This document shows, piece after piece, positions 16,617 to 39,207 of a stretch of 64,000 bases of DNA (the first letter of the stretch is position 1; each line of letters begins with the position of its first letter). This stretch comes from Candidatus Anderseniibacteriota bacterium (GTDB lineage: Bacteria > Patescibacteriota > Andersenbacteria > UBA10190), in NCBI GenBank assembly GCA_040900375.1, contig JBBDZC010000003.1, positions 586 to 64,585 on the forward strand, written 5' to 3'. The notes under the pieces were generated by a model, which did no database searches, was not told the origin of the DNA, and saw only the letters and a list, made by a program, of their open reading frames with translations. Both the position numbers and the translations under genes were made by a program.

Positions 16617-16648
16617 TTTTTTACTTACCACTCTTGCCGGTCCCCGTC

Positions 16649-21660: not shown

Positions 21661-22494
21661 TCAAAATGCCTGCCGTGAGGTACCTGATAGTTGGGCACTA
21701 TGCGGCAACGGCGCACCGCGGTATTTCCAGAAATACTTAAATGCTGAGCGAATATGTTCGCGCGTGGCCCAGTTAGTGATAATACCCATAAGTGTGCCCT
21801 GACTCGTGCGCTGATGAAAATGGGAAAAACGAGCTTGCGGTACATAAGTTACGCGCCATCCGCCTTGCCAGAAGCGGCGACACCAATCCACATCCTCAAA
21901 GTAAAGAAAGAAACGTTCATCCATGCCACCTATTACTTTAACCGCGGCTGCCCGCAGCGCCAGACAAGATCCCATGAGCCAGTCTACGTCTTGCACTTGT
22001 CGGTGATCAAAGTCTTTCATCAGAAAATGATTAATTTCTTTCTTGCCTAAACGAGTTTGCCCTAGCCACGTGCGCCGGTAAAGAATGGTGAGGAGTTTAT
22101 AAAAATGGTAACAAGAGTATTGCACTTTGCCACTCGGCGAGAGTAACTGTCCCCCTGCCACCCCCACATCCGGATGCGCCTGAAGAAACTGTGTGAGAAT
22201 CATAACAGAACCCGGTAGAGCAATAACATCGGGATTCAGCACTAAGTAGAACTGACCTTGGGCCTGGGCTAGCGCCTTATTAACTCCCGCCGCCAATCCC
22301 ATATTTTTAATATTATCAATCACCATAATTTCTGGGAAATCGGCACGGAGGAACGAGACGCTAGTGTCAGATGATCCATTATCAACCACGATAATTTCCG
22401 TGCGAGGAGGTAGTTTTTGTGTGAGCAATGACTCAATACAGGCTTGCGTGAGCGCTCCGGTATTATAGTTAACAATGATAATAGATAGCTTCAT
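21661..22494 (-). CDS. glycosyltransferase family 2
   Basis: MKLSIIIVNYNTGALTQACIESLL...VVDNGSSDTS...LNPD are classic GT2-A motifs. Confidence 0.8.
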   Translation of the reverse strand: MKLSIIIVNYNTGALTQACIESLLTQKLPPRTEIIVVDNGSSDTSVSFLRADFPEIMVIDNIKNMGLAAGVNKALAQAQGQFYLVLNPDVIALPGSVMILTQFLQAHPDVGVAGGQLLSPSGKVQYSCYHFYKLLTILYRRTWLGQTRLGKKEINHFLMKDFDHRQVQDVDWLMGSCLALRAAAVKVIGGMDERFFLYFEDVDWCRRFWQGGWRVTYVPQARFSHFHQRTSQGTLMGIITNWATREHIRSAFKYFWKYRGAPLPHSAQLSGTSRQAF

Positions 22495-22577
22495 GGGTAT
22501 TAGTTAGTTATACCAAGGACGCGGGCGTAAGTAGTAAAACCCCCCTAGCCTATACTCGTTTTGCTCGTGACACAAGC

Positions 22578-23588
22578 TTAGATTTGTTTGAGCACTCCCT
22601 CTCGGCGCTTTCTGTTCATCCGCGGTAAACCAGAAATTACTTCCGGCCATATCTTAAATAGAGAAGGATACAAGAGACTAAGCCCTAAAAAAACTAGACC
22701 ACGCCCGATGATCGCGGGGGAATATTGAAAGATCGTCATGGGGGTGGCATTTTTAGCAATCATCCAGATCCAGTTACGCAGACTGTACCGCGTGCGCGGA
22801 CTCTGAAGACGACGATAAATCAGACGAGGACGTGATCCCCAGTTAAATATTCCGCGCCGACCAAGGGTCCGAGCGTGATGACCAATCAAGACAGGAACAT
22901 AGTGCACTTTCCATCCTGCACGTTGCAGGCGCCAGCCCAAGTCAACATCTTCTTTATACGCGAAGAAGTCTCTGTCATAAAATTCATTACGACCATGTGC
23001 TACTTGTTTAAGCGCCTGCAAGCGATACAGACTGCAAGCGCCAGTTGTAGCAGTTATGGTTGCTCTTGTCGCAAACTGTCCTTTATCTTCCTCGAAGGCC
23101 CCGCGCTCTTTACCATTCAAAGCATAGGTTAAAACAATGCCGGCGGAATCAATCATGGACTTATTATTGATTATCTCCTGCCGCAGTAACTTACCCTGCA
23201 CGGCTCCTAAAGTGGGATCACCTTCCAAAGCTTGAATGAGCACTTGTACCCCTGGCCAGTGTAGGGTGACATCAGGGTCACACGTTAATACATACGGTGT
23301 GGTGCAGCGAATAAATCCTTCATTATGCCCCTGGGCAAATCCAAGATTACGCGGTAAGGCCACAACCTGGGCCCGGGGGAGAAGCTTGCGCACCGTAGCA
23401 ATTGAGTCATCAGTTGAGTGATTATCAATATATCTAATGATGACGTCCGCCAGCGGAACAACGTGTAAAGCGGGCAACGTCTGGGCCAAGACAGAAGAGC
23501 TGTTCCAGCCCACAATTTGAATAGTGAGTTGCGCTGTCATAGTGAAAGTATTGCTTACGTTATACCAGACTACCGTGTCAAGCTCCAT
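22578..23588 (-). CDS. glycosyltransferase family 2
   Basis: LTIQIVGWNSS...IDNHSTDDS...NLGFAQGHNEG...CDPD are GT2 motifs. The true start is possibly MTAQLTIQ at about 23540. Confidence 0.75.
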   Translation of the reverse strand: MELDTVVWYNVSNTFTMTAQLTIQIVGWNSSSVLAQTLPALHVVPLADVIIRYIDNHSTDDSIATVRKLLPRAQVVALPRNLGFAQGHNEGFIRCTTPYVLTCDPDVTLHWPGVQVLIQALEGDPTLGAVQGKLLRQEIINNKSMIDSAGIVLTYALNGKERGAFEEDKGQFATRATITATTGACSLYRLQALKQVAHGRNEFYDRDFFAYKEDVDLGWRLQRAGWKVHYVPVLIGHHARTLGRRGIFNWGSRPRLIYRRLQSPRTRYSLRNWIWMIAKNATPMTIFQYSPAIIGRGLVFLGLSLLYPSLFKIWPEVISGLPRMNRKRREGVLKQI

Positions 23589-23589
23589 C

Positions 23590-23725
23590 TTTAGAGCTTG
23601 GTGAATGAGGAGTTATTATACTCGGGTGACACCGGGGGGAGGACCCGCCCTTAAGCAGCACCAAGCCTTGCGACTGCGGCCGCAGGGGCGGGGCAGCCGC
23701 TCGATATTTATATTCGCCAAAATCT
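23590..23725. repeat. second copy (degenerate ends) of the ~180-bp TIR element seen at 11344-11525
   Basis: Shares AGAGCTTGGTGAAT.A.GA.TTATT.TACTCGGGTG at one end and CCGCTCGATA.T at the other, with a different GC-rich core. Confidence 0.5.
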
Positions 23726-23748
23726 CTAAAGCTAAGACAAGCGCCTAA

Positions 23749-23857
23749 GTCAACCCATTCGACTCCACGGTCTAAAGACCGTGGCTTGTTCAGGGTTGAC
23801 TCTAAAGCCGCGCTTATCTCCACCCTGAAGGGTGGAGCTTGCGCGAGTCGAAGAGTC
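23749..23857 (-). repeat. copy 3 (inverted orientation) of the ~109-bp multi-hairpin repeat
   Basis: The reverse complement matches copies 1 and 2 over the full length. Lies in the divergent GT2 / murF intergenic region. Confidence 0.85.
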
Positions 23858-23921
23858 AATGAAAGCCAGCAATGGCTGCGCGGCGCTTTTCGTGGATAAG
23901 GAAAAGATGTAGCCTTAGAGT

Positions 23922-25541
23922 ATGTCCTTCGCCATTTATTTGCCCTGTACGGTGGGCGCCATTCTTGTTTCTTTGCGGATCCTAGCGCAAATTGAGCTAT
24001 GGCAGCGCAAAGAATACCGCTGGGATCGATTACGCTCCCTGCTCTTTAGTGAGGAAAATCGTGTCTTGTTTCCATCCGGATTACTTGTCGGCATGATTCT
24101 TTTGGATATCGGCTGGCTGGCCTCAATCATGGGTCAAGACGCCGGCGCCAATATGTTAGGCTGGAGTAGTTTATTTTTGTTTCTCGGACAAGACATCGTA
24201 CGCATTCGCGCCCGCGGTCTCTATCGGCCCGAGTTTACCCTTAGGGCTCTCCTTATTCTTGGGTTAGCTGCGCTGTTGACCCTTCTCTACATTCTGACTG
24301 TCTTTATTCCTGAAACACAATTAGCCCTCCAGTGGGCCACGCTTGTAGTTTTTATGCCGGTGATCACTGCCAGCAGTGTCATCGGTGTTAATATTCCCGC
24401 TAAACTACGCCAGCGAAGTATTATTGCCCGCGCCGCTAGCTGGAGAGCTCGCCTAACAAAACTTACTGTCCTTGGCATCACCGGCAGTTTTGGTAAAACA
24501 TCTACCAAATATTTTCTCTCGCAATTGTTTAGTAATCGTTATGACGTTGCGACCACCACTGACCACCGTAATTCAGCCCTCGCTGTGGCTTATGACATGC
24601 TTGCTCAACTGACACCTAAAACTAAGATATATATTGCCGAAATGGGTGCCTATCGTCGCGGCGAGATCAAGGAACTAGCTGAACTTACTCGTCCCAAAAT
24701 TGGTCTAATTACCAACATTGGCAATCAACATGCTGCGCTCTTTGGTTCCTCAACCCAGATACTGCGCACCAAGTGGGAATTAATTGAGACTCTACCCGTC
24801 GGCGGTACTGCGGTTCTCAATGCCAATGATGAGCGGCAAGTTGAACAAGCCAAAGGTATCAGTCAAAAAATAATCTGGTTTTCCACTCGCCCCGAGAGAA
24901 AGGCTAATCTTTCCCAGCCGGTGACAGTTTTTGTTGACCAAGTAAAAATTGCTCCCCGCTCACTTGCCTGTATACTGCACCTTCATAAAATAAAAAAACC
25001 TATCACCGTTAACTTACTAAGTGATGCTATGCTGACAAGTTTAGTAGCCGCTGCCGCAGGCGCTCTCGCCCTTGGCCTGCCACCAAAAGAAATTTTTGCT
25101 CGCATTCCTACTCTGCATTCCTATGCTCGGACAATGGAACTAAGAAACAATAGATTTGGGGCCACGATTATTGATGACAGCTACTCGGCCAATGAGCCAG
25201 GCGCGCAGAATGCTATCGAGCACCTCGCTCGTTTTGCCGAAAATAAAAAGATTATCATCTTGGCGCCCCTAATCGAATTAGGTCCCGAGGCAGCGGCTGT
25301 CCATCACCGTCTGGGAGCTATCTTAGCCGCCAGTCGGGCGCAAGTGTATATTACGGCTAAAACTTATCTTAATTCTATTATTGAGGGTGGTCGCCAAGTA
25401 AATAAAGATTTTAAGCCCCACGTCTATAGTCAGCCCCGTTTATTAGCCCAGGTGTTACGGCAACGGGTTACGGCTGACTCGGTAGTTTTAATTGAAGGGA
25501 GAGTACCCGAGATTGTGCGCATGAGCGTGCTTAACCCCTAA
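23922..25541 (+). CDS. murF: MurF-like Mur ligase with N-terminal 4-TM membrane domain replacing the usual N-terminal domain
   Basis: P-loop LGITGSFGKTSTKYF and the MurF-type C-terminal IIDDSYSANEPGAQNA. The first ~170 aa are four predicted TM helices, with only ~25 aa between the last TM and the P-loop. Confidence 0.7.
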   Translation: MSFAIYLPCTVGAILVSLRILAQIELWQRKEYRWDRLRSLLFSEENRVLFPSGLLVGMILLDIGWLASIMGQDAGANMLGWSSLFLFLGQDIVRIRARGLYRPEFTLRALLILGLAALLTLLYILTVFIPETQLALQWATLVVFMPVITASSVIGVNIPAKLRQRSIIARAASWRARLTKLTVLGITGSFGKTSTKYFLSQLFSNRYDVATTTDHRNSALAVAYDMLAQLTPKTKIYIAEMGAYRRGEIKELAELTRPKIGLITNIGNQHAALFGSSTQILRTKWELIETLPVGGTAVLNANDERQVEQAKGISQKIIWFSTRPERKANLSQPVTVFVDQVKIAPRSLACILHLHKIKKPITVNLLSDAMLTSLVAAAAGALALGLPPKEIFARIPTLHSYARTMELRNNRFGATIIDDSYSANEPGAQNAIEHLARFAENKKIIILAPLIELGPEAAAVHHRLGAILAASRAQVYITAKTYLNSIIEGGRQVNKDFKPHVYSQPRLLAQVLRQRVTADSVVLIEGRVPEIVRMSVLNP

Positions 25542-25649
25542 TGAACCAGGGACTTTACCCTTCTCGCCTCATTAGCATTGTCGGCAGCCAGAGCAGAGTA
25601 AATAAGACCCAAGCTTGCAAGTTGAGCCTAAACATGTATAAAGCGCTGT

Positions 25650-26897
25650 ATGCCTCGTCATGAAAATATGTCGCCTATTCTCACCGCTCTCTCGCCCAAT
25701 ACTGAATCAGATGACCGAGTCCGAGCCTGGCAAATACTACAGCGCCCTTGGCGCTGGCATGATGCAAACCAGGTAGCGTCAGTGGAAAAGAAAATATCAG
25801 CATTATTTAATCATCTACCAGCCGTCACCGTCAGCTCGGGACGCCGGGCAATGAGCTATGTCCTTGAAGCTTTCGATATTGGCCAAGGTGATGAAGTAAT
25901 AATCCAAGCCTTTACATGCCTAGCCGTACCGGCAGCCGTGATGTGGACAGGGGCTAAGCCAATATACGCCGATATTGAAGAAACAACTTTCAATTTCGAT
26001 GTAGTTGACATTAGTCGCAAGCTTACCCCTCGCACCAAAGCAATTATTATTCAGCACACGTTTGGTATTCCTGGTCCCCTGGCCACACTCCAAGTTCTCG
26101 CCGCCAAAAATAATATTATTCTAATTGAGGATTGTGCTCATGCTTTGGGCGCTACCTATAACACTGCCCCTGTAGGTACCCAAAGTGATGCTGCCATCTT
26201 AAGCTTCGGCCGCGATAAAGCTTTATCCTCCGTCTTTGGCGGAGCCGTCGTCAGCCGCCACCCACATATTATCGCCCGCATCCGCACTATCCAGACCGCC
26301 TTACCCTATCCGCCTGCTTGGTGGATAATTCAACAATTACTGCACCCTCTCTTCCTGGCAGTGATTAAGCCGCTATATTTCTCCGCCAGCATAGGAAAAA
26401 TTATTTTGGTAATCCTCCAGCGCTTAAGTATCCTTAGTCTGGCAGTTACCCGCTCCGAGAGAGTCGGCGCCCAACCCAATCATGCACGCTGGCGTTATTC
26501 ACCGGCCCTCGCTTATCTTCTCGCGCAACAACTCGATAAACTGGAACGCTTCACTGCTCATCGTCGTAAGATTGCGGCTACCTACGCGAGAGCCCTATCA
26601 TATTCCCCTTCGTTTCCGCCTGCAGCTCAACCAAGTTGGTTGCGCTTTCCCGTCGTCGTTACAGATCGGGCAGCCGCCGTCGCCGCCGCCCGGGCAGCCC
26701 ATATCATGTTAGGTGACTGGTATCAAGATGTTATCATGCCCACAGTTGAAAAGTCGCAAATCAATTATCATCCAGGTTCATGCCCACGCGCCGAAAGTAT
26801 CGCTACCAAAATTATTAATTTACCAACATATCCCGCCTTAACTACTAACCAAGCCGAATGGATTAGTAAAATTGTTGCTCCATATGTCCGACATTGA
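25650..26897 (+). CDS. DegT/DnrJ/EryC1/StrS family PLP-dependent sugar aminotransferase
   Basis: VTVSSGRRAMSYVLEAFDIGQGDEVIIQAFTCLAVPAAVMWTGAKPIYADIEETTFNFD and SFGRDKAL (PLP-lysine region). Confidence 0.8.
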   Translation: MPRHENMSPILTALSPNTESDDRVRAWQILQRPWRWHDANQVASVEKKISALFNHLPAVTVSSGRRAMSYVLEAFDIGQGDEVIIQAFTCLAVPAAVMWTGAKPIYADIEETTFNFDVVDISRKLTPRTKAIIIQHTFGIPGPLATLQVLAAKNNIILIEDCAHALGATYNTAPVGTQSDAAILSFGRDKALSSVFGGAVVSRHPHIIARIRTIQTALPYPPAWWIIQQLLHPLFLAVIKPLYFSASIGKIILVILQRLSILSLAVTRSERVGAQPNHARWRYSPALAYLLAQQLDKLERFTAHRRKIAATYARALSYSPSFPPAAQPSWLRFPVVVTDRAAAVAAARAAHIMLGDWYQDVIMPTVEKSQINYHPGSCPRAESIATKIINLPTYPALTTNQAEWISKIVAPYVRH

Positions 26898-27912
26898 GGT
26901 TAAACTTATCGTCAGTCAGACAGCATGGGACGCTTTTGTGCTAAGACTCCTGCCGAATACCTTCCTTCAAAGTTGGCAATGGGGACAATTCCAGGAGCAA
27001 CAGGGCGAAATAGCACTCTATCTCGGACTATATCGCGGGCCAGAGCAAATTGGAGCCGCCCTCGTGATCTTAGTCAAGGCCCGCCGCGGTTATCACTACA
27101 TTATTCCTCACGGCCCCCTTTGGCTCTCCCCAGCTGATGTTCGCGGTAGTATTCAAGTAATTGCGACTTTTTTGCGCGCCCATGCCACCACTACTGGGGC
27201 AGTGGGGCTACGAATTGCCCCACTCCTATTGGCTACTCCTGCCCACTACGGCATATTTCGGGAACTTGGTTTTCGGGCAGCGCCACTGCATATTCATACC
27301 GAACTTACCTGGGTACTTGATATTAACGAGTCGCTTGCCCTGCTGCTTAAAGCAATGCGTAAAACTACTCGTCAGGCTATTGCCAAAGCGGCGGCCGCCG
27401 GCGTCACAACAGAAATCATTACCGATGTGATTGGCATAAACCGATTTTGGCCACTCTATGAACAAACCCGTCAACGTCATAAATTTGTTCCTTTTAGTCA
27501 GGAATTTCTTCGGCAACAATTCACAGTTTTCGCTTCCACCGGTAATGCCTATCTAGTCATGGCCCGTTATCGGGGCAGGGATATCGCCGGCGCTATCCTA
27601 ATACAGTACGGCAACACCGTCTTTTATCATCATGGCGCGTCAGTTAATCTCGCCGCTTCGGTATCTGGTGCCCAGTTCACCCAATGGCAGGCGATCCAGG
27701 AAGCCCAGCGGCGGGGGGCTACCCGTTATAACTTTTGGGGGATTGCTCCTGCCGAGCAACCAGACCATCCCTTTACCGGTATTACCGTCTTTAAGAAAGG
27801 TTTTGGTGGCTTTGCTCTTGACTATCTGCATGCCCAAGACTTGCCGCTGACACGAGCTTACTGGAAGTTGTGGGCAGTCGATCATTGGCGTAAATACCGC
27901 CGAGGATTTTAG
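26872..27912 (+). CDS. FemAB-family aminoacyl/peptidyl transferase (GNAT-fold, FemX-like)
   Basis: AWDAFVLRLLPNTFLQSWQWGQFQEQQGEIALYLGLY...ILIQYGNTVFYHHGAS...NFWGIA is a Fem/FemX-type architecture. Overlaps DegT by 26 nt; the likely start is MSDIEVK at about 26884. Confidence 0.7.
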   Translation: MLLHMSDIEVKLIVSQTAWDAFVLRLLPNTFLQSWQWGQFQEQQGEIALYLGLYRGPEQIGAALVILVKARRGYHYIIPHGPLWLSPADVRGSIQVIATFLRAHATTTGAVGLRIAPLLLATPAHYGIFRELGFRAAPLHIHTELTWVLDINESLALLLKAMRKTTRQAIAKAAAAGVTTEIITDVIGINRFWPLYEQTRQRHKFVPFSQEFLRQQFTVFASTGNAYLVMARYRGRDIAGAILIQYGNTVFYHHGASVNLAASVSGAQFTQWQAIQEAQRRGATRYNFWGIAPAEQPDHPFTGITVFKKGFGGFALDYLHAQDLPLTRAYWKLWAVDHWRKYRRGF

Positions 27913-29381
27913 GCAGCCACCTTGTTATTCCCACTAGTAGCTGACACTAATCCGGCCATAATCCAAAAAAGGGCGTTAGTGGGATAAATATCCCACGTAT
28001 CAATAAAAATTGCCTGGAGCATAAAAGAGATTAACCAACCAAGCGCGCTCAAGGCAATAATACGCGGCACGCCCGTCCGCAAAAAGATGGTAGTTACCCC
28101 GGTTCGTAGTAGCCGCCAATAAATCCAGGCGTACAACAAGAGGCCGATGAGTCCCAATTCAATGAGTGTTTTAAGATACTGATTATCGACGAGGGTAGTA
28201 TTTTTCGCTAGCTGCACGTTGCGCGCTGCACCCGTAGCAATATCATATGAGGTTAGGGTTACTTCGCGGAAGTTCTGCGCGAGCACATCACCTAGACCTC
28301 GGCCAATAATTGCTTCGTGATTAGACAGCGGTGCCAACAGTCGGGCGAGGAATTCCAACCGTTCCTGATTACTACGATACCCTGAATCAAAACTCGAGGA
28401 AATAAAAACTCCCACGCGGGTAAATTGAGCCACAGCCACCGTTACCATCACCAATAGTAAGCAGCAAATTGCCAGCTTTCGCCAAGGAAAAGCCGCCACA
28501 GAATACTTCTTAAAAGACGCTGTCGCCACCAGCCCAATAATAGTGATAAGCAAGCTAGCAAATCCCAGCCACACGGCCCGAGAATACGTCAGATAAATTA
28601 AGAGTGTAGCCGCTAGTAACAAAAAACCTGCACCAGCCCGCACTCTACGCGAAGTTTTTACCAGAACAGCCGCCAGACAAATACCGGCAATAAGAATAAG
28701 ATAGTGGCCGAAAACACTAGGATGACCAAAAGTGCTCGACACCCGAGGAATCCATAATTTAACAGCTGGTTCAAAGCGCAACACCGCACTATCAATCGCG
28801 AACCACCATTGATAAGCACTAGCTACGACAGTGATCGCAAAGGAAAAAAATAACCACATGAGCAGTTCGTAGTAAAATTTCTTTGTCCGCGGCAAATAGA
28901 GAACAATAAAATAGAGCAAGATATATAGTAATATTTCTCTGGTTCGCAGGATACCTAGCAGGCGAGAATCAGCGCGCAGGAGAGCGACGCTTACCCATAG
29001 ACTAAGTCCGATGACTGGTCCGATTAATACCATGCGGCGGTAGGTCAGCTTTTTTTGAAGCAGAGGCCATAAGAACAGATGAACAAAAAGCGTGACAATA
29101 ATAACATCCTTGATCAGGGTGGCAATACTAATGGTCTGCGTCACCTTAAGGAGTGGCAGCAGTGGGCTGATAATCACGAGCATAAAGAAACCAAGCACAG
29201 GCTGTTGCCACACCCACCAGGCGACAATTACAAAGAGGAGGCTTAAAACTCCCGCTTGAAAGCTAACAGTCAGGCTAATGACCGCAACACTCATTGCGGC
29301 AATCAGCGCCCAGGCGTAGCCGGGAGGAAAACTCACAGAAGAGAGTCGCTCAAGATTATACATGGGACTTAATTTTCTCAT
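27909..29381 (-). CDS. O-antigen ligase/polymerase (Wzy/WaaL-like) family membrane protein
   Basis: 490 aa with about 12 TM helices and a large periplasmic loop, sitting between GT genes. Confidence 0.55.
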   Translation of the reverse strand: MRKLSPMYNLERLSSVSFPPGYAWALIAAMSVAVISLTVSFQAGVLSLLFVIVAWWVWQQPVLGFFMLVIISPLLPLLKVTQTISIATLIKDVIIVTLFVHLFLWPLLQKKLTYRRMVLIGPVIGLSLWVSVALLRADSRLLGILRTREILLYILLYFIVLYLPRTKKFYYELLMWLFFSFAITVVASAYQWWFAIDSAVLRFEPAVKLWIPRVSSTFGHPSVFGHYLILIAGICLAAVLVKTSRRVRAGAGFLLLAATLLIYLTYSRAVWLGFASLLITIIGLVATASFKKYSVAAFPWRKLAICCLLLVMVTVAVAQFTRVGVFISSSFDSGYRSNQERLEFLARLLAPLSNHEAIIGRGLGDVLAQNFREVTLTSYDIATGAARNVQLAKNTTLVDNQYLKTLIELGLIGLLLYAWIYWRLLRTGVTTIFLRTGVPRIIALSALGWLISFMLQAIFIDTWDIYPTNALFWIMAGLVSATSGNNKVAA

Positions 29382-30342
29382 TATTATTTCTCCACCCCAA
29401 ATGAAAAAGTATTGCCGGAATTGTAAGGACTAGGGCCAGAGGCAGCAAGAGGATAAGCAGAACGTATGCCCCCGTCCCCAAATGTTTTCGGGTGTAATGA
29501 AGACAACTCTTAAAGAAGGGCCATGAACGTTGCCAGCCAATAAGTTGATTAAAACTGATTCCTCCATAGTGCAATACGACTGCCGCTGGCACATAGAGAA
29601 TTTTCCAACCAGCCGCGCTCGCCCGCCGACAATAATCAACCTCTTCTAACCACACCCAAAAACGCTCATCAAGATACCCAATAGTAGTAAGCAACTCTTG
29701 GTGAATTAAGAAAGCCGCACCCATCACCTGTTCCACTATCTGTTCTTGCTCGTAATTAAAATCAGTCCAGAGGTATTCCCGCCAGCGGCGGGTGCGGCCC
29801 GCTACTCGACTTAATTTAAGAAACCACCCTATAAAGATAGGCAGAGTGGGTAATCGTCGAACTGATAATTGTTGTGTCCGATCAGCGTTGAGTAATTTAG
29901 GCCCCACAATGCCAACGCCGGGATGATGATCAAGTGCCATCACCATCTGCTCTAACGCCCCCGACTGCACCTTGGTGTCCGGATTAAGCAAGAGAATATG
30001 AGTCCGGCTCGCTCGCGTTCGGTGTATATAATGAATGCCCAAGTTATTAGCACGTGCAAAGCCTACGTTCTGCGCTTGCTTAAGTAAGTGGACGGGTAGT
30101 TTATTGCCCCCCGTAAATGCCCCGCCGCTAGCGGCGGGGACGGCTTCATCATTCGCTAGTACGACCGATTCGAGTCGAATTATCGAGTCATCCGTCGAAG
30201 CATTATCAATAACGACAATCGCTTCGATAAGGTTTTTTTCTGGCAATCGCAGCAGCGACTGCACACATTGGACTAGCAACTCTCCAGTATTCCAATTAAC
30301 AATTATGACGCTTACTTTTGTCATTAGTATTAAAATAGTCAA
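29356..30342 (-). CDS. glycosyltransferase family 2 carrying an in-frame 14-aa insertion encoded by the 42-nt palindromic element
   Basis: VSVIIVNWNTGELLVQCVQSLL...VIDNASTDDS...NVGFARANNLG...LNPD are GT2 motifs. The DxS-to-NxGFA spacing is 42 aa here against 22 aa in the two sibling GT2s. The extra segment PAASGGAFTGGNKL is encoded by 30108-30149. Confidence 0.8.
   Translation of the reverse strand: MTILILMTKVSVIIVNWNTGELLVQCVQSLLRLPEKNLIEAIVVIDNASTDDSIIRLESVVLANDEAVPAASGGAFTGGNKLPVHLLKQAQNVGFARANNLGIHYIHRTRASRTHILLLNPDTKVQSGALEQMVMALDHHPGVGIVGPKLLNADRTQQLSVRRLPTLPIFIGWFLKLSRVAGRTRRWREYLWTDFNYEQEQIVEQVMGAAFLIHQELLTTIGYLDERFWVWLEEVDYCRRASAAGWKILYVPAAVVLHYGGISFNQLIGWQRSWPFFKSCLHYTRKHLGTGAYVLLILLLPLALVLTIPAILFHLGWRNNNEKIKSHV
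30108..30149. repeat. second copy of the 42-nt GC palindromic element, inside the GT2 CDS
   Basis: The reverse complement differs from 16575-16616 at only 3 positions. Includes the perfect 20-nt palindrome CCCCGCCGCTAGCGGCGGGG. Confidence 0.7.
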
Positions 30343-30452
30343 ATATTAAGCCGGGTGCTTCAAGATCTAATAAGTCTGCCTCGATAGTGCATGGACATAC
30401 CCAGGCTGTCAAAAACTCCAATGCCTACCGACGCTTACATTATTACTCTCTC

Positions 30453-30563
30453 TGTCAACCCATTCGACTCCACGGTCTAAAGGCCGTGGCTTGCTTAAGG
30501 GTTGACTCTAAAGCCGCGCGTATCTCCACCCTGAAGGGTGGAACTTGCGCGAGTCGAAGAGTC
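30453..30563 (-). repeat. copy 4 (inverted orientation) of the ~109-bp multi-hairpin repeat
   Basis: The reverse complement is about 97% identical to copy 2. Lies between a GT2 start and a truncated NIF3 fragment. Confidence 0.85.
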
Positions 30564-30601
30564 AAGTGCATTACTATACGAACATGCTACCACTGACCTA
30601 A

Positions 30602-30844
30602 GTCTCGAATTATCTAGATCAATATCTGGCAATTACCGACATTGAAGACGATTGTTGGAATGGACTACAATTTGCCGGTAAGTCAGAAGTTGGTAAAATT
30701 GCTTTCGCCGTTGATGCGGGTCTCAACGTCATCTTTGCTGGCCACTATGCCACTGAAACTCTCGGCCTGCGCGCTTTAGCAGATCATATGCACCAGAAGT
30801 TTTCTCTGCCAGTGGAGTTTCTCGATCTGCCAACGGGGCTTTAG
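30602..30844 (+). pseudogene. 3' remnant (80 codons) of a NIF3/YbgI-family (dinuclear metal centre) gene, no start codon
   Basis: Frame translation gives ...CWNGLQFAGKSEVGKIAFAVDAGLNVIFAGHYATETLGLRALADHMHQKFSLPVEFLDLPTGL*, which matches the NIF3 C-terminus (AGHHATE...FIDIPNP). An in-frame stop lies immediately upstream at 30599-30601, right after repeat copy 4. The N-terminal ~180 aa are absent. Confidence 0.65.
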
Positions 30845-30856
30845 ACCCTCTATTTT

Positions 30857-31966
30857 TTAAGAACCCGCTAAATGCAGCACTTGAAGAGTGGCCGATGTAG
30901 TTGCTTCCCAAGATAATAGTTGGACTCGTTTGAGTCCGCGGTCTACCAGTTCTGATCGTTGTGTTAAAGCCGTGGTAATACCATCTGCAATACTCTCGGC
31001 AGACTCTGGCTCTACGAGAATTGCCGCCCCGCCTGCCACTTCAGGCAGCGCCGAAACGTTCGCGACCACTACCGGGCAACCACATGCCATCGCCTCGAGA
31101 ACCGGCATGCCAAAACCCTCATAGAGACTCGGCAGCACAAAGACTTCCGCGTGCCAATACAATACGGGCAGTAGATCATCCGGCACTGGTCCAGTGAGTA
31201 AGATTCGTTCTTTAATAGGTGAGGCCTGTACTCTTCTAAGAATCGGTCGCTGGAGCCAGCCATGGCCACCCGCAATCACTAATTGCAATTCAGGCCTGGC
31301 AGGGTTGATAATTTCAAAAGCCTCAATTAACCGTTCGAGGTTTTTACGCGGTTGAATCTGACCAACATATAGAATATAGGGGCGGTGCAATTGACTATAG
31401 TGCGCTGTGAGAGCGGCCAAATGACGCTCTCGTTCATCTGGCGTCGGCACAGAGAATTTTTCTTGGTCAACACCATGGTGAATGATATGGACCCCTGCAG
31501 TCCGGCCGTAGTATCGCTCAATGTCATCGGCGGTGGCTTGCGATACGGCGATAATCGCCGTGGCCTCACGGGCCACATACGCGCTAAAGGTGTGGAGCAA
31601 AGCCCAATCTTTATAGCGAAACTGCTGCGGATAGCGATGAACGGCCAAATCATGAATAACAGCAACAGTTCTCATTTTTTTCGGGCGCAGATAGGGAATT
31701 TGCTGAATAGGCATGAATAAAACATCTGGTTGGTGCTTATATAACTCGCCCGGCAGGCGCAGTTGCGTCCAATATTTCGGCCACGGTGATATATGAAGAT
31801 GAACATGGGGCGCTGGCTGATATTGGGCTACAGGTGCAGGTGTAAAAAAATGCCACTCATCATGCGCAGCCGCTGTCGGCAATCTCTCGGCCAGCTCGCG
31901 GGTATAACGCGTCGTACCATCCGCTCGGTTAGTGGCTAAATCAGAAATATCAAATCCAATCCGCAT
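30857..31966 (-). CDS. glycosyltransferase family 4 (GT-B, group 1)
   Basis: C-terminal motif PSLYEGFGMPVLEAMACGCPVVVANVSALPEV. Confidence 0.8.
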   Translation of the reverse strand: MRIGFDISDLATNRADGTTRYTRELAERLPTAAAHDEWHFFTPAPVAQYQPAPHVHLHISPWPKYWTQLRLPGELYKHQPDVLFMPIQQIPYLRPKKMRTVAVIHDLAVHRYPQQFRYKDWALLHTFSAYVAREATAIIAVSQATADDIERYYGRTAGVHIIHHGVDQEKFSVPTPDERERHLAALTAHYSQLHRPYILYVGQIQPRKNLERLIEAFEIINPARPELQLVIAGGHGWLQRPILRRVQASPIKERILLTGPVPDDLLPVLYWHAEVFVLPSLYEGFGMPVLEAMACGCPVVVANVSALPEVAGGAAILVEPESAESIADGITTALTQRSELVDRGLKRVQLLSWEATTSATLQVLHLAGS

Positions 31967-32004
31967 AGAACAGTGTTAGAGTTTTAGATAGGGACATATA
32001 TGCT

Positions 32005-34659
32005 TTAGTTCCAAAGATTATTAATCAAAGTAAGAATGCGCTCCACTCGATCTTCCCAGCTATGATGATGTGCTTGGGCAATTCGTTCTACTTTCCGGTG
32101 TTGCGGGTTCTTTAAAAATTGTTCTCCCTGCTGGATAAACTCCTCTGGATTAGTAGCATAGCCAATATCTTGGCTATATTCCTTGAGCTCGGGCAAGCCG
32201 GTTACCAGTAGCGGTTTGCCAGTCGCCATAAATTCCCAAAATTTAAGCGGAAAACTGGCTTCATTATAGCGGCTTAACCGATATGGAATAATACATATAT
32301 CAAAGTTTGCCACATAGCTAGGCACGACTTGCCGTTTCACCGGGCCGATTAAATGAATATTAGGCAATGACTTTATTTTTGCTAAAATTTCGGGACTGCG
32401 GTCAACAATTGGTTCGCCAATAAAGATAAACTGCCAAGCCGCCCGGCGAGTTGCCACCGTATACAAAAGATCAAAATCAATCTTATAGGAGTCAAGCGCT
32501 CCCACTGAGCCAAAAATAGGGTGGGGTATCGTTGCCAGGCGAGCCTGTATCGGGGCGGGTGCAGTCGCGGCAGAAAGGTTAAAAAACGCCTTCACATCAC
32601 CGGCGTTAAGGACTAGATGAATGTTAGTATGCTGTTGTTGTTTGAGCGTTAAAAGTTTTTTGGAAGTGACGGTTACTAAATCAGCACGCTGGATAATAGC
32701 GTGCTCTTCCTCGACCACCCGTTTAGGGTTACGATCCACCCCCGCTTGGGCCGCATGATCATCAACACAATCATAAATAACTTTAGCGGTTCTAAATGCT
32801 GATAAATATTCAGCTGCTTCTGTATCGTAAATCCAGACGAGCGTGGCCGCCTTCTTGAAGTGCAGTAAGCGCAGACACAGCAACACACTCGGTCGGTTAA
32901 GCCAATGGTTAATGGTAGCAATCCATTTTATTTCCCGTGAGCCGGGTAGTAAATTCCATTGCGACTTTATATAAAGATAGTTGCTTTTCTTTTCTAACCA
33001 GAAGATTCTCGTTAGTAGCTTGAAAATGCTGTGTGGTTGTCGCCAATTATTTAACAAGAAACGAAGAATCCAAATTCGCGGTTCTACATATAAAACAGGA
33101 TAACGTTGCGCTACGCGCGACATCATGTGCTGGCGATTAGTCCACGAAGGCTGATCATATGCCGCCCCGGCAAAACACACCACCTGAAAACTATTTTTTA
33201 CTAGCACCGCTGTCCGTGATCGTCTTGTAAAAGCTGCCGGGAGAAGATTACTGCGCCTCACTTCCCGGATACTATATAACAGAAGCAATACCAATACTCC
33301 TATCCTTATACCCAAACCCGGCCCACTTAAGAGCCAGATAACCGCGATCCCCAAGATGCCTAACAGCAAAGCTAATTTATTGGTTAGTAACCTAATACCA
33401 TAATACCGCCGGGCAATAACAACCATGGCGAGGTAGGCTACGGCTGCACCACTGAACACAGCGACCGCGGCCCAGAGCGGATCAGGATAGACAAGATATA
33501 GCCAACCCATGGTCGCAGCCGAGACAGCGGTCAGCAGTCCATAAATCCCGGCTCGTACATGTGGCTTATCAGCGGCGACAAAAACGCTACTAGTGCCAAT
33601 ATCGAGTAGCGAATACAAGAAGAAGGCGAGGGTCATAATATAAATCAGCGGTTCCGCAGGCAGGTAGTTTACGCCAATAATATAAGTCAATATTTCTGGT
33701 GTAAAAAATAGGAGCAGGAGTGTTAGAGTGGTCATAAGCATGAAAACGCGACGCATGTTACGGGTGACGACATGCTTAAACTGCTCTATTTGACCTGCAT
33801 ATAGAGAGCTCATCCATGATAAATTTACTTCCGACAGTGCCATTGCAATAATCGTCAGTCGCGCGCCAAAAGTTAAAGAGACATTCAAGTAACCTAACTG
33901 GTCAGACGCCAATACTCCACCCAAGGCTAAAAGCGGCAGGCGTTGCCAGACCACAAAAAATATGCGGGCGAGATACATAAAGGCGCCAATCTTCATTACT
34001 CGCCGGCTATAACGTAAAAGCTCTGACCAGGACGGAAAAGCTAACGCCTGACGTAAATTGCGCCGGACAATAATACCCAGCAAAACCACCATGATTACTG
34101 TCGTGACAATCACGGCATAGAAGAATCCTTGGGTTCCCAGAAATAAAATAAAAAGACCAAAAACAACAATGTTAATGGCCGCGGTCAGGATTTGCACCAA
34201 GTACAAACTATAAAACTTCTTCATACCCGTGAGTGTTGCCCCGAGCACGTCTTGGAGGCCCTGGAGAACTAACACGGCAGCAAAAAGCTGCAAATAGGGG
34301 GTGATTTCTGGCTTGCCGTATATGGAGACGGCAATCAGATTGGCTAAGGCTAGTAATCCAAGAGACAGGGGAACTGTGACAAGCTGGCGGGTGATTTGTG
34401 ATGCCCAAAAGATCTTACCAATTTCTTGCTTACTCTTGAGAATAGCAATTTCACGAATGGCGCCATCAACAATCCCTAAGTGTTGGGAAACACCAATCAC
34501 TCCCCCAATCGACATGACCAGTCCTACCAGACCAAACTGTTCTGGTGAAAGCAGGCGGACGATGATAATGCTCTGGCCAATGCCCAGCGCCGTGGTAATG
34601 GCCTTGGTAAAAAGAGACAAAAATTGGATGCGGGCAAGGCTCATACCACAAGTAAGCAA
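32005..34659 (-). CDS. fusion protein: Wzx-like oligosaccharide flippase (about 14 TM) + C-terminal GT-B glycosyltransferase domain
   Basis: The N-terminal ~480 aa are polytopic, with a polysaccharide-biosynthesis / MOP flippase-like start (LFTKAITTALGIGQSIIIVRLLSPEQFGLVGLV). The C-terminal ~400 aa are a soluble GT-B-like domain. Confidence 0.6.
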   Translation of the reverse strand: MLTCGMSLARIQFLSLFTKAITTALGIGQSIIIVRLLSPEQFGLVGLVMSIGGVIGVSQHLGIVDGAIREIAILKSKQEIGKIFWASQITRQLVTVPLSLGLLALANLIAVSIYGKPEITPYLQLFAAVLVLQGLQDVLGATLTGMKKFYSLYLVQILTAAINIVVFGLFILFLGTQGFFYAVIVTTVIMVVLLGIIVRRNLRQALAFPSWSELLRYSRRVMKIGAFMYLARIFFVVWQRLPLLALGGVLASDQLGYLNVSLTFGARLTIIAMALSEVNLSWMSSLYAGQIEQFKHVVTRNMRRVFMLMTTLTLLLLFFTPEILTYIIGVNYLPAEPLIYIMTLAFFLYSLLDIGTSSVFVAADKPHVRAGIYGLLTAVSAATMGWLYLVYPDPLWAAVAVFSGAAVAYLAMVVIARRYYGIRLLTNKLALLLGILGIAVIWLLSGPGLGIRIGVLVLLLLYSIREVRRSNLLPAAFTRRSRTAVLVKNSFQVVCFAGAAYDQPSWTNRQHMMSRVAQRYPVLYVEPRIWILRFLLNNWRQPHSIFKLLTRIFWLEKKSNYLYIKSQWNLLPGSREIKWIATINHWLNRPSVLLCLRLLHFKKAATLVWIYDTEAAEYLSAFRTAKVIYDCVDDHAAQAGVDRNPKRVVEEEHAIIQRADLVTVTSKKLLTLKQQQHTNIHLVLNAGDVKAFFNLSAATAPAPIQARLATIPHPIFGSVGALDSYKIDFDLLYTVATRRAAWQFIFIGEPIVDRSPEILAKIKSLPNIHLIGPVKRQVVPSYVANFDICIIPYRLSRYNEASFPLKFWEFMATGKPLLVTGLPELKEYSQDIGYATNPEEFIQQGEQFLKNPQHRKVERIAQAHHHSWEDRVERILTLINNLWN

Positions 34660-34676
34660 ACCATGATACTAGAATT

Positions 34677-35870
34677 TCATATCTTGGCAAGCGCGCGGGA
34701 ACGCGTTGCCACAACAGCATCAATAACACCTTTTACTAACAAGATCCGCTTTGCCCAGCGAAATTGCTCCCAGGCACGAGTGCGAGCCGCTTGGGCCAGT
34801 TTATCGCGTTGATGAGGTTGATTAAGTAACTGCACAATTGCCTCTCGCACCCCTGTTACATCATTTGGCCTGACAATCAGGCCCGTTATCTGGTGTTGGA
34901 CTGCTTCGCGAGCGCCGCCACTGTTAGTCGCAATGGCCGGTGTGCCGGCGGCCGCTGCCTCAAGATAAACAATGCCAAACCCCTCTTCATCCTTGACTAT
35001 CGGGCGAGGAGTGAGTAGGAAAATTTCTGCGCCAGCGTATAAAGACGGCAAATCATAAACTGAAACGTGGCCTAAAAACCGGACGCTCGTTTGCATAAAG
35101 TGTTGCGTTGCCAGCCGTACTAATTTATCTTTTTCCGGCCCTTCACCAACAATCACAAGCTGAAGCTCACTGAACTTGGTCTGATCAAGCTTAACAAATG
35201 CTTCAATCAAGACATCAATACCCTTACGTTCAATGAGCCGCCCTACTGTAAGAAGATAGGGTTTTTTTAAACCATACTTAGTTAAGATCGCTTGTTGTGC
35301 TACCGGTACTGGCTTAACAAAATATTGCTCGTCAACCCCGGGCCAAATTTTAACGAGCTGCTCCGCCCGAGCACCGAGTGCTAATAACTTTTGCTTAGTG
35401 ACTTCATTAATATAGATAATCCGATCAGCATACTGAAGCACTCGCTCTAATTTTCGCCGCTCCTTAGCCTTACCTGCCCAAGTTTCAATTTCCATCGCAT
35501 AGGTGAATACAACGTACGGGATACCCAAATACTTTTTTAAGTAGTAACCAATTAAGCCTTCGCACAAAGCCTTACCACACAGGACAATATCAACATTTTC
35601 TCGCCGTAGCTGGCGGTACGTTGCAATAAATAAGGGTAACCATGCGGGTTTAATAAATGACCAGTACCAGCGCCTAGCAATGACAGCCCGTATACCATTA
35701 TCCTTGCCGTCAATCTTAGTATCTGCCCACGGAGGCACCACCACCGTCACACTTTGAGTGGGTAAATTTCCCGCGATATGCGTTAAGTAGTTTTCAATAC
35801 CACCAATCCGGGGTGGCCAATTTTCTGTCAGCAAAAAAACATGCATACGATGACGGTATGATCGTGACAT
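34677..35870 (-). CDS. glycosyltransferase family 4
   Basis: MHVFLLTENWPPRIGGIENYL...EGFGIVYLEAAAAGTPAIATNSGGAREAV. Confidence 0.8.
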   Translation of the reverse strand: MSRSYRHRMHVFLLTENWPPRIGGIENYLTHIAGNLPTQSVTVVVPPWADTKIDGKDNGIRAVIARRWYWSFIKPAWLPLFIATYRQLRRENVDIVLCGKALCEGLIGYYLKKYLGIPYVVFTYAMEIETWAGKAKERRKLERVLQYADRIIYINEVTKQKLLALGARAEQLVKIWPGVDEQYFVKPVPVAQQAILTKYGLKKPYLLTVGRLIERKGIDVLIEAFVKLDQTKFSELQLVIVGEGPEKDKLVRLATQHFMQTSVRFLGHVSVYDLPSLYAGAEIFLLTPRPIVKDEEGFGIVYLEAAAAGTPAIATNSGGAREAVQHQITGLIVRPNDVTGVREAIVQLLNQPHQRDKLAQAARTRAWEQFRWAKRILLVKGVIDAVVATRSRALAKI

Positions 35871-35914
35871 ATTTACTACGCAAATGCTACTAAGCGCGTG
35901 CGCAAGCGACTATT

Positions 35915-37375
35915 TTAGTAAGCCTTAACGAGGCTAACTCCTTTATAGAAATATTTGAGAATCTTTTGAAAACTCCATTTATCCTGCCCGGCTAAGCCAT
36001 ACGCACCTTGCGCACTCATACCGACACAGTGGCCCCTACAGGTAGAGGAAGCATGGCGCGGATCCTTGACTGATTGCAGGTGAGGAAAACGGCTGCTATT
36101 CCACTGTTCTTGCGCGCTCCGTGTTCGCCCATCAGAATCAGAGAAATAAACCGTTACCACAGGTTTATCACCCTCCCCATTAGTCACAATCACTCCCTTA
36201 GTTTTATTAAAAATACTTGCCATGCGCGATGTAATGAGCTCATATTCATACCCTCGGTAGAGTTGGTCATTGGCAGTGTTATCAATATCAAAACGCTGCC
36301 TCACAAATCGTCCGCCAGTAATAACCTTGTGGTAAAGTACGTAAGTACGGGCAACCGTGCCTAGCGCCTTAATGTACTCTTCTGGTCCTTGGCCCGATGT
36401 TTCTGCTAAACCTCGCAAATAATATTCCGTTCGTAACTCATTAATTGCCCATAATTCATTACAGCCATTGCACTTGCGAATCTCAATCACCCCTCGAAAA
36501 CGATTATAGTTCTTGCCGGTGATCGTGGGCGAAGGATCGGAGTAACTCGTAATCTGCATAATCGCCCCTGCCAGGGGCACGAGACGGACTTCACTGACGG
36601 GATCAAGATTAAGGCCGGAACCGCGAACATGATACTTCTCATCGGACCAACTGACTTGCACGACATCATCTTTATCCACTGTCGCCAAAATCTTCGTTCG
36701 GCCTTCCCGCACCTGGAATGAGCCGTTAGCCGTAACATGGATGGCTCGTCCGTCAGTCTTAAAAATACCAATACGCACCTCGTCACCCATTGGGTGAGTA
36801 CTAATGCCCGCCACTGTCCGACGGCTAACCCCGCCTGGAGAGCTCGCGACCGCGGCGGCCTTAACGCCACAAATACTGTCACTACCCTTGCGCACATTTT
36901 TTGCCTTATGGTACTGCATTGAGGATACCAAGTTTTTGTACTTAGTAATGTCACCGCAGCTAATACGCTTTCGCCACCAGACTTTTTCCGCCGCGGTCGG
37001 ATCATTGCCATAAATATTCACAAACAAAGGCAGGACAGCCTTGATCATTGTTTGTTTATCATCAGCTATCCCCGCCGGCAGGCCGCCGGCTAGAGGAGAG
37101 CTCCCGGCGTGTTCCCGCTGGTAGGCCATCGCGCCCACAAGGGCTTGGTAGGTCGTCTTTTCCTGACGGTCTACGCGACCTTCCCACCAGGCTTTTTCCG
37201 CGGCTGTAGGCTGACGACCATACACACTGACAAAAGCTGGCACAACCTGCTCGTGCAAGGTGGCGCCATCAGCCACAGTGACGATCGTTAAGCTGCCAAC
37301 AATAATAAAAAGGATAGAAAAGGCTTTTTTCATATAATCTTCATCAACAACAATACCCCTAGAATGATATACCAA
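35915..37375 (-). CDS. SpoIID/LytB domain protein with a duplicated N-terminal ~40-aa repeat
   Basis: C-terminal SpoIID-like region (ELWAINELRTEYYLRGLAE...ALGTVARTYVLYH...NDQLYRGYEY). The N-terminus has a signal/TM peptide and a tandem repeat (VPAFVSVYGRQPTAAEKAWWEGRV / VLPLFVNIYGNDPTAAEKVWWRKRI). Confidence 0.65.
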   Translation of the reverse strand: MVYHSRGIVVDEDYMKKAFSILFIIVGSLTIVTVADGATLHEQVVPAFVSVYGRQPTAAEKAWWEGRVDRQEKTTYQALVGAMAYQREHAGSSPLAGGLPAGIADDKQTMIKAVLPLFVNIYGNDPTAAEKVWWRKRISCGDITKYKNLVSSMQYHKAKNVRKGSDSICGVKAAAVASSPGGVSRRTVAGISTHPMGDEVRIGIFKTDGRAIHVTANGSFQVREGRTKILATVDKDDVVQVSWSDEKYHVRGSGLNLDPVSEVRLVPLAGAIMQITSYSDPSPTITGKNYNRFRGVIEIRKCNGCNELWAINELRTEYYLRGLAETSGQGPEEYIKALGTVARTYVLYHKVITGGRFVRQRFDIDNTANDQLYRGYEYELITSRMASIFNKTKGVIVTNGEGDKPVVTVYFSDSDGRTRSAQEQWNSSRFPHLQSVKDPRHASSTCRGHCVGMSAQGAYGLAGQDKWSFQKILKYFYKGVSLVKAY

Positions 37376-37389
37376 TATGATAGCACACT

Positions 37390-37776
37390 CTAGACAGGGA
37401 TAGCGAGTCGAGCACGAGCCTTGCGGACAATATCTTCTAATTCCCAGTCTGCCTTAACAATATAATCATGGACGCCACTATCAAATGATTCATCAATTTT
37501 TGCCGCATCACTAATATTAGTTAGGATAATGACTGGCACTTTACTCCCCCAAGAATTTTTCCGAAGTTTTTTGAGCATTGTTATACCATCCATTTCTGGC
37601 ATGACGATATCAACAAGGATCAGGTCCGGGTGCTCGGTCAAAGCAATGTGTAACCCCTCGCGGCCATTACTTGCAGTCGAGACAGTGAAACCGTGGTCAC
37701 GCAACTCTTCAGCTAAAACTCGTACCAGGGGTAATTCATCTTCAATGATTAAAACATGGTTACTATGGGCAGGCAT
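37390..37776 (-). CDS. single-domain response regulator (CheY-like receiver)
   Basis: VLIIEDELPLVRVLAEEL...DLILVDIVMPEMDGITMLKKLRKN. No output domain (128 aa). Confidence 0.85.
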   Translation of the reverse strand: MPAHSNHVLIIEDELPLVRVLAEELRDHGFTVSTASNGREGLHIALTEHPDLILVDIVMPEMDGITMLKKLRKNSWGSKVPVIILTNISDAAKIDESFDSGVHDYIVKADWELEDIVRKARARLAIPV

Positions 37777-37788
37777 AATGCAGTAAAT

Positions 37789-39207
37789 TCATGATAACAT
37801 AGTCTCTGTCTCTGCCAGCGCGACGGCTGAATATTTTGTCAAAGGCAGCGTGACAAAAAAATGAGAACCATTGCCTTCTTGTGACTCAAACCAAATTTTA
37901 CCGCTGGCATATTCCAGCAACGTCTTGACTAAGTATAACCCCAAACCCATGCCATCATTATGATAATTCTTGACATTACTAGCCCGGAACAGCTTTTCAA
38001 AAATTTTTGCCTGATCTTTTTGCGGAATTCCGCAACCGCTATCAGTAACTTCAATCTGCAAGATAGTTTCTGCTTTGCTGGTTGCCGAGGGTTGCAACGC
38101 TATTTTGAGAAAAACGCCTGTCTCGCGATCAGTATATTTAATAGCGTTACTAAGCAAAGTCTGTAAAATAATCCGGAGGAGCTTAGGATTAACGTAGACC
38201 TGTTCTTGGATGGTCGCTACTTGCTTTTCTAATCGTAAATTTTTTTCGGTAATCTGTGGCTGTAACTCTTTGACCACACTTTCTACTAGTTCTGGTACAT
38301 CACATGTAACTGGTTTAAGATTAAAAGTTTTCAACTGCACCCGCGAAACATTCAATAAGGCCTGCACTAACTGGGCCATTCGTTTACTACTCTCATGCAC
38401 CGTTGCTAAATATTTTTCTTGTAGCGGTGTGATCCTGCCTGTCTTGCCATGCAATATTCTTTCGACATACCAGTTAATAGTCGTGAGCGGAGTTCGGAGT
38501 TGGTGGGAAGCCAGAGAAATAAAATCAGTTTTTGCCTGCTCCAATTCTTGTTCACGACTGACGTCGCGGATAACTTGAATCGCCCCAATAATTTCCTGTC
38601 CCTGCAAAACTGGTGTGGCAGTAATCATTAAGGGAATACGACTGCCATCCTGGTGCTGACAATAAACTGCTGTTTGTGATACTTTTTTACCTATTATCAG
38701 CGCCCGATAAAGCGCTTGAGCTGTAAAAGGAATAAGACGATCATGGGCATCAAAAAGTTGTACAACCTCGGCAGTCTTCTGGCCAACGATGGTCGATACC
38801 GCCCGACCAAGGATAGCGGCCGCCACCCGATTAACAATGACCACGTACTGATTAACATCAATAACCATTAAACCCTCACCCGCACTTTGTAACACTGCCT
38901 CAATGTTTAATTTAGCTTCTGCTAGATTATTTTTTTCCTGGGTAAGTGCATCGAGGACAATATTTTTTTCCTGCACCCGGCGATCAAGAGTTGCATTGGC
39001 AGCTTCCAGCTGGGCTATCTTTTCTCGAAGAGCTTCGAGCATGACCTGAATGCCGACATACAATTCAGTAAATTCATCTTTCTCCCCGGGAATAGGGATA
39101 TCTTCAGAAAAATTACCAACAGAAGCCTGGGTAAAGACATGATTAAGATAGGCTAAACGCTGCTTAATAACCCTCTGATTTAAAGGTGATGAGCGCTTAC
39201 GGGACAT
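37789..39207 (-). CDS. soluble sensor histidine kinase (coiled-coil + PAS + HisKA + HATPase_c)
   Basis: H-box FISLASHQLRTPLTTI and G-box DGMGLGLYLVKTLLE. No TM helices. Confidence 0.85.
   Translation of the reverse strand: MSRKRSSPLNQRVIKQRLAYLNHVFTQASVGNFSEDIPIPGEKDEFTELYVGIQVMLEALREKIAQLEAANATLDRRVQEKNIVLDALTQEKNNLAEAKLNIEAVLQSAGEGLMVIDVNQYVVIVNRVAAAILGRAVSTIVGQKTAEVVQLFDAHDRLIPFTAQALYRALIIGKKVSQTAVYCQHQDGSRIPLMITATPVLQGQEIIGAIQVIRDVSREQELEQAKTDFISLASHQLRTPLTTINWYVERILHGKTGRITPLQEKYLATVHESSKRMAQLVQALLNVSRVQLKTFNLKPVTCDVPELVESVVKELQPQITEKNLRLEKQVATIQEQVYVNPKLLRIILQTLLSNAIKYTDRETGVFLKIALQPSATSKAETILQIEVTDSGCGIPQKDQAKIFEKLFRASNVKNYHNDGMGLGLYLVKTLLEYASGKIWFESQEGNGSHFFVTLPLTKYSAVALAETETMLS

Follow-up and report, generated by a model that had tools for sequence, protein, structure and literature searches.

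Did the structured repeat that lies beside a damaged NIF3-family gene in this Andersenbacteria genome cause the damage? Both are located in the 514-nt gap between two glycosyltransferase genes (GT2 and GT4) of a cell-envelope polysaccharide cluster. The initial annotation, made from the sequence by itself, had read the fragment as the last 80 residues of a NIF3 protein that had lost its start codon and its N-terminal ~180 codons, and had taken this as evidence that the repeat, or a rearrangement mediated by it, had destroyed the gene. We examined the locus within the window (the whole 64-kb stretch of DNA analysed here) and compared it with the same locus in relatives. The fragment is very probably a young NIF3/DUF34 pseudogene, the gene being ancestral to the position between GT2 and GT4 in this Andersenbacteria lineage. 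The features discussed are collected in Table 1.

Table 1. Features of the window, and content of the slot between GT4 and GT2 in relatives (positions in relatives are those of their own contigs)
Feature	Position	Strand	Evidence or remark
Repeat copy 1	11539-11648	-	covariance model and repeat comparison
Repeat copy 2	19322-19433	-	99% complementary to copy 4
Repeat copy 3	23749-23859	+	62 nt upstream of intact Mur ligase gene 23922-25541 (Pfam match)
GT2, family-2 glycosyltransferase, divergent neighbour	29356-30342	-	Pfam PF13641/PF00535; flanks NIF3 in relatives; alignment A4
Ancestral GT2/NIF3 divergent promoter region	30343-30453	.	holds TGTCAAAAAC
Conserved 10-mer TGTCAAAAAC	30407-30416	.	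once in 64-kb window; reverse complement carries perfect TTGACA -35 hexamer for GT2
Repeat copy 4	30454-30565	+	between conserved promoter motif and NIF3 ATG
18-nt stretch, repeat end to NIF3 ATG	30566-30583	+	read directly from sequence
NIF3/DUF34 pseudogene (very probable)	30584-30844	+	in GT2-GT4 gap 30343-30856
NIF3 N-terminal block, native ATG and codons 1-46	30584-30721	+	tblastn; alignment A2; PDB 2yyb residues 7-49
Premature stop TAA, codon 6	30599-30601	+	translation; alignment A2; ortholog DNA
In-frame deletion junction G46/L47	30721..30722	+	alignment A2; tblastn segments overlap at 30707-30721
NIF3 C-terminal block, last 40 codons and native TAG	30722-30844	+	tblastn; PF01784; 2yyb 199-242
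GT4, family-1/4 glycosyltransferase, convergent neighbour	30857-31966	-	Pfam; orthologs served to retrieve syntenic loci
Slot in L084			empty; GT4 and GT2 overlap
Slot in L087			empty; 10-nt gap
Slot in L085	6221-6691		small unannotated ORF, 156 aa
Slot in L088	5192-5545		small unannotated ORF, 117 aa
Slot in L089			intact 252-aa NIF3, opposite strand, divergent from GT2; P-type ATPase
Slot in L091			intact NIF3 divergent from cut-off 201-aa ORF (presumed GT2); DksA/TraR zinc-finger protein; small ORFs
Slot in JGI contig			GT2, NIF3, GT4: order as in window
Slot in L092			intact NIF3; 186-aa ORF between NIF3 and GT2; far-side glycosyltransferase is a different group-1 enzyme

Identity and lesions of the NIF3 remnant

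The plus-strand frame that closes at the TAG at 30842-30844 translates as MLPLT*VSNYLDQYLAITDIEDDCWNGLQFAGKSEVGKIAFAVDAGLNVIFAGHYATETLGLRALADHMHQKFSLPVEFLDLPTGL*. That this frame encodes NIF3-family sequence is borne out by Pfam: the 80 residues past the TAA match PF01784 in two stretches (E = 8.3e-10; 39.1 bits against a curated cut-off of 23.4), so the relic is real and far beyond chance. The best stretch covers profile positions 212-251 of 256; a full-length domain of ~250 residues is not present. In a phmmer search against the PDB, the remnant matches TTHA1606 (2yyb, 242 aa; E = 1.4e-19), with remnant residues 8-50 corresponding to residues 7-49 of TTHA1606 and remnant residues 43-86 to residues 199-242. 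With the intact NIF3 of L089 as the tblastn query, residues 1-46 map to 30584-30721 and residues 208-252 to 30707-30841 (64% identity).

Aligned with eight orthologs that are each exactly 252 aa long (alignment A2), the remnant occupies columns 1-46 and 213-252, leaving 86 of 252 codons. The stretch from AGHYATE to LPVEFLDLPTGL had correctly been recognised as the true NIF3 C-terminus, but it makes up only the last ~40 of the 80 residues that had been assigned to the C-terminal end; both phmmer and tblastn place the first ~40 at the N-terminus of NIF3. The start codon, which had been thought absent, is present as an in-frame ATG at 30584 and aligns with the start codon of all eight orthologs; we therefore take it to be native. 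The loss is internal rather than N-terminal and comprises 166 central codons (498 nt; columns 47-212) in frame, with endpoints as alignment A2 places them. The missing part is indeed absent and not frameshifted nearby, as no further piece of NIF3 was detected by tblastn anywhere in the 64-kb window.

A search of a set of 5.8 billion proteins with the 80-aa remnant returned no close intact allele; its matches were C-terminal fragments of unrelated NIF3 proteins at no more than 67% identity. All 80 loci retrieved in a scan of genome contigs with the remnant belong to unrelated phyla and match via the word NVIFAGHY only, and a scan of metagenome contigs with the intact L089 protein gave a single distant and uninformative match. 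Two loci first taken for short contiguous NIF3 genes (L039 and L056) proved to be normal genes of 250-260 aa in which the tblastn segment had been spuriously extended. No close relative (>70% identity) was found for reconstructing the ancestral NIF3 sequence. The 252-aa subtype is unusually uniform across distant phyla: proteins labelled Nanoarchaeota, Dadabacteria and Thermodesulfobacteriota, each likewise 252 aa long, share 54-60% identity with those of Andersenbacteria.

At codon 6 the ortholog residue is E or K (R in P0138), and the GAA of L089 is one substitution from the TAA of the window. As read from the frame, this nonsense codon and the internal deletion are two independent lesions, and the destruction of a NIF3-family gene stands as originally proposed. 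After the TAA the next in-frame ATG is at 30788 and would give 18 residues. The deleted block takes in the motif columns of HHG (64-66) and HLPLDAH (98-104), where, going by the YbgI structure, most ligands of the dinuclear metal site presumably lie. We considered and rejected a functional mini-protein, or readthrough, because there is no usable start past the TAA and the columns that presumably carry most of the metal site have been deleted. Seven conserved residues make up the dinuclear metal site of NIF3/DUF34 proteins: five are His, and Asp and Glu contribute one each (PMC8469502). The remnant retains only the motif AGH(H>Y)ATE, whose second His is changed to Tyr. Judged by its coding content, no functional NIF3 protein can be made from it.

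The retained codons are otherwise well preserved. Among residues invariant in the eight orthologs, 31 of the 33 in the retained columns are kept and there is no frameshift, which indicates that the pseudogene is young. A 6-bp hairpin (CGTTGA-N8-TCAACG) spans the deletion junction, and its GTTGA/TCAAC arms vaguely resemble the GTCAAC/GTTGAC of the repeat. A scan for this pattern gives one site against 0.9 expected, and the hairpin is therefore treated as chance.

The sequence comes from a MAG, and the region adjoins a repeat that breaks short-read assemblies; both would fit an assembly or sequencing artefact, with NIF3 intact in the true genome and both the deletion and the stop erroneous. In the Logan assembly of run SRR27977660, a contig of 69,875 nt does end at 30513, inside the repeat. 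This contig is nevertheless identical to the window over 30513-37966 (7.4 kb), both lesions included. Its end lies exactly 30 nt before 30543, the sole copy-specific base of copy 4 (A, with G in the other copies), which would be expected of a k=31 graph breaking in a genuine multi-copy repeat. The sequence at the deletion junction is unique and offers no repeated DNA on which an assembly could collapse. The Logan contig and the MAG may share reads and are not fully independent assemblies; their agreement rules out an assembler quirk, although not a sequencing bias. An artefact is, in our judgement, extremely improbable.

The slot between GT4 and GT2 in relatives

Loci for comparison were contigs encoding GT4 homologs with 62-64% identity to the GT4 of the window. 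The gene order common to the relatives is SpoIID, GT4, a polysaccharide-synthesis/GT1 fusion, GT4, the slot, GT2, Wzy, FemAB, DegT and Mur ligase. The comparison with the orthologous locus proposed in the initial annotation gives an intact 252-aa NIF3 in the slot of four relatives (L089, L091, the JGI contig and L092) and an empty slot in two. Loss of a flanking gene at the NIF3 locus was considered and rejected, since the JGI relative has the same order of GT2, NIF3 and GT4. The remnant has the position, strand and divergent partner (GT2) of the intact genes and keeps the upstream 10-mer, and we therefore regard it as their positional ortholog, decayed in place. Its stop codon lies 12 nt from that of GT4.

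The motif (T)TGTCAAAAAC occurs in L089 and L091, between NIF3 and GT2, and in L092, just upstream of NIF3. From the motif to the NIF3 ATG there are 24 nt in both L089 and L091. The GT2-NIF3 spacer measures 63-84 nt in the relatives versus 241 nt in the window, where 112 nt are the repeat. On the minus strand upstream of GT2, TTGACA-N17-CACTAT is a plausible candidate for the GT2 promoter, the assignment being scored on consensus hexamers only.

The content of the slot varies (P-type ATPase, DksA/TraR zinc-finger protein, hypothetical ORFs or nothing), and a neighbour-joining tree of GT4 places the NIF3-bearing relatives in one clade that is separate from the window and not its sister. Both observations would suit a NIF3 fragment that came by horizontal transfer in a cassette to a variable slot, either already damaged or trimmed later. 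Against this, position, orientation and the divergent partner GT2 are as in the relatives, the upstream 10-mer is conserved, and the divergence of NIF3 (52-61%) is comparable to, and of the same order as, that of the flanking GT2 (49-52%) and GT4 (62-64%) by BLASTP. We consider such a transfer improbable. Since the clade of NIF3-bearing relatives is not sister to the window, a NIF3 ancestral at the slot needs several independent losses (L084, L087, L085 and L088); a variable slot that gained NIF3 more than once is a minor alternative.

Besides NIF3, extra genes are found in the slot at L089:4698-6602, L091:1620-2951 and L092:7324-7884 and 8854-9258, as well as in L085 and L088. They encode a P-type ATPase or a DksA/TraR zinc-finger protein, or are small ORFs. 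Pfam gave no match for these small hypothetical ORFs of the relatives' slots or for the ORFs that overlap the repeats, and tblastn found no P-type ATPase remnant in the 64-kb window.

Decay in place of an ancestral gene, the reading we prefer, would imply that NIF3 is dispensable in the genome of the window. The slot is intact, eroded or empty in relatives, so NIF3 is dispensable in at least some Andersenbacteria, and of the bacteria for which there are data, the overwhelming majority can do without DUF34/NIF3 (PMC8469502). The remnant is a textbook young pseudogene of a widespread, usually non-essential gene and carries little weight alone.

The 112-nt repeat and the order of events

The four copies of the repeat have sharp borders (GTCAACCCATTCGACTCC...GAGTCGAAGAGTCAA) and unrelated flanks, and all are intergenic. 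The predicted fold has an MFE of -51.9 kcal/mol (z -4.9; the two strands give z -4.9 and -4.4). Differences between copies are almost all in loops or linkers of the model structure, with one at a stem edge; in copy 1 the tetraloop changes from TGAA to TTCA. The only inverted repeat is an 8-nt subterminal one (TTCGACTC/GAGTCGAA). Rfam gave no match in the window at gathering thresholds and only a chance miRNA match at E<=1 over 11000-31000, and pattern scans of JGI metagenome contigs and IMG/VR gave none. A covariance model built from the four copies found only these four in the window and no copy in ten syntenic loci from relatives. The longer spacer upstream of NIF3 and the absence of a copy in relatives together make copy 4 a lineage-specific insertion, and its 99% complementarity to copy 2 makes it recent.

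No significant target-site duplication was found in the flanks of the four copies (best matches p=0.1 to 1.0 versus shuffles). The CATTAYTA likeness on either side of copy 4 was rejected as such a duplication (p about 0.1, absent at the other copies). A reading of the four repeats as attC-like sites of integron cassettes was also rejected, because the intervening genes are syntenic with repeat-free relatives and several genes lie between copies; nor do the repeat ends fit the attC core-site consensus. A 19-kb section of the cell-envelope gene cluster holds all four copies, and the other 45 kb hold none.

The remnant had been described as directly abutting the repeat, with a stop 1 nt after it. 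The repeat common to the four copies ends earlier, and from its end there are 18 nt to the ATG, 33 nt to the TAA and 156 nt to the deletion junction. Neither end of the deletion falls on a border of the repeat, and the data therefore lend no support to a deletion mediated by it. That the repeat and the damaged gene share one 514-nt intergenic gap is what suggested that the repeat, or recombination via the repeat, removed the 5' ~180 codons of NIF3 and left its 3' end against the repeat. The alignments refute this as stated: the native start and 46 collinear codons lie between the repeat and the deletion, which is internal, and the TAA is a second and independent lesion. Recombination between two copies would have taken the N-terminal block too, and none of the four copies shows a significant flank duplication or footprint. 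A deletion made by the repeat is scarcely credible, and with the anatomy corrected the locus no longer counts as evidence for one.

A different role for the repeat is conceivable, in which its insertion came first and either uncoupled NIF3 from its promoter or gave it a leader of stable structure, the nonsense codon and the deletion then being neutral. The repeat is strongly structured; it starts 37 nt past the end of the conserved motif and leaves 18 nt to the ATG, where L089 and L091 have only 24 nt from motif to ATG. A recent copy 4 and a young pseudogene are also compatible in time, within loose limits. Such insertions are tolerated elsewhere, however, as copy 3 shows by its place upstream of a Mur ligase gene that is intact; proximity of the repeat to a start codon is thus not in itself enough to destroy a gene. 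The promoter, too, is assigned from consensus hexamers only. We hold this order of events to be possible but on balance unlikely.

In the account that we favour, NIF3 would have lost its function recently by nonsense mutation, by deletion or by disruption of its promoter or leader through insertion of the repeat, in any order. The deletion would be an ordinary spontaneous internal event not made by the repeat. The repeat itself is a lineage-specific and separate insertion within the divergent GT2/NIF3 promoter region. A bolder proposal makes the repeat a previously undescribed, recently active non-autonomous CPR element that inserts by promoters or gene starts and whose insertion silenced NIF3. 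This seems doubtful, with a chance clearly below that of the insertion having merely come first. If true, small palindromic elements would drive gene loss in a lineage usually held to be streamlined and repeat-poor.

Other repeats occur in the window. A 46-nt GC-rich palindromic element (core CCCCGCCGCTAGCGGCGGGG) is present at 30098-30143 and, inverted, at 16571-16616 (91% identity). One copy is intergenic; the other is inside the GT2 gene and coincides with an insertion of ~15 aa, NDEAVPAASGGAFTGG, that is absent from five orthologs. By analogy with the Rickettsia palindromic elements, the latter would seem to be a palindrome inserted in frame into coding sequence. The intergenic region at 16440-16560 has further GC-rich palindromes, CCCCCGCGGCCAGGCCGCGGGG and GGAGTCGGCTCCGCCGATTCC, beside the 46-nt element. 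A second repeat family, D5, is located at 11340-11525 and 23590-23700, at a distance of ~110-160 nt from copies 1 and 3 of the 112-nt repeat; its two members are 84% identical over 44 nt and remain similar out to ~70 nt. A long stem, GAGCTTGGTGAATAA...TTATTCACCAAGCTC, closes the first of them (MFE -89 kcal/mol, z -3.4). D5 has no Rfam match. On its minus strand TACAAT/TATAAT occurs just upstream of gene starts, and from these motifs D5 may be a duplicated promoter or leader. Between a GT2 paralog and the Mur ligase gene, the divergent spacer measures 41 nt in L092 (598-638) versus 333 nt in the window (23589-23921), where it is filled by repeat copy 3 and D5. Intergenic expansion by repeats appears to be general in the genome of the window. 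Several small palindromic repeat families in a CPR genome, with spacers grown from a few tens to several hundred nt, are a more noteworthy by-product than the NIF3 pseudogene itself.

Comparison with known systems

The N-terminal block of the remnant is like that of TTHA1606 (Thermus thermophilus, PDB 2YYB) and E. coli YbgI (PDB 1NMO), with the pattern YLDxYLxI...NGLQ...K(I/V)xxAVDA, and so is the C-terminal block, (N/H)VIFAGH(H/Y)ATExxG...F(I/L)D(I/L)PTGL. With 252 aa, the NIF3 orthologs of Andersenbacteria belong to the short YbgI type, which lacks the PII-like insert. Unlike functional PF01784 members, the remnant lacks the centre of the protein and is stopped at codon 6, which marks it as a pseudogene.

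In reduced or host-associated bacterial genomes, such as those of Rickettsia and Mycobacterium leprae, nonsense mutations and deletions erode dispensable genes. The decay in place seen here, by a point nonsense mutation and an internal deletion, with the gene intact, partly gone or wholly gone in relatives, is like that of such pseudogenes. Nothing about it is unusual by comparison; the genome in which it is seen here is simply that of a CPR bacterium (Andersenbacteria).

The 112-nt repeat presumably belongs beside REP/BIME, ERIC, the Correia elements of Neisseria (MITEs) and the Rickettsia palindromic elements. It differs from them in having no detectable target-site duplication and only the 8-nt subterminal inverted repeat, and it thus lacks the terminal inverted repeats and target-site duplications that define a MITE. 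With REP/BIME sequences it has in common that it is multi-copy and intergenic and forms stable hairpins. With all these small-repeat classes it presumably shares a length of ~110 nt and its non-coding, multi-copy and intergenic nature, together with strong self-complementarity, insertion next to promoters and gene starts, and lineage-specificity.
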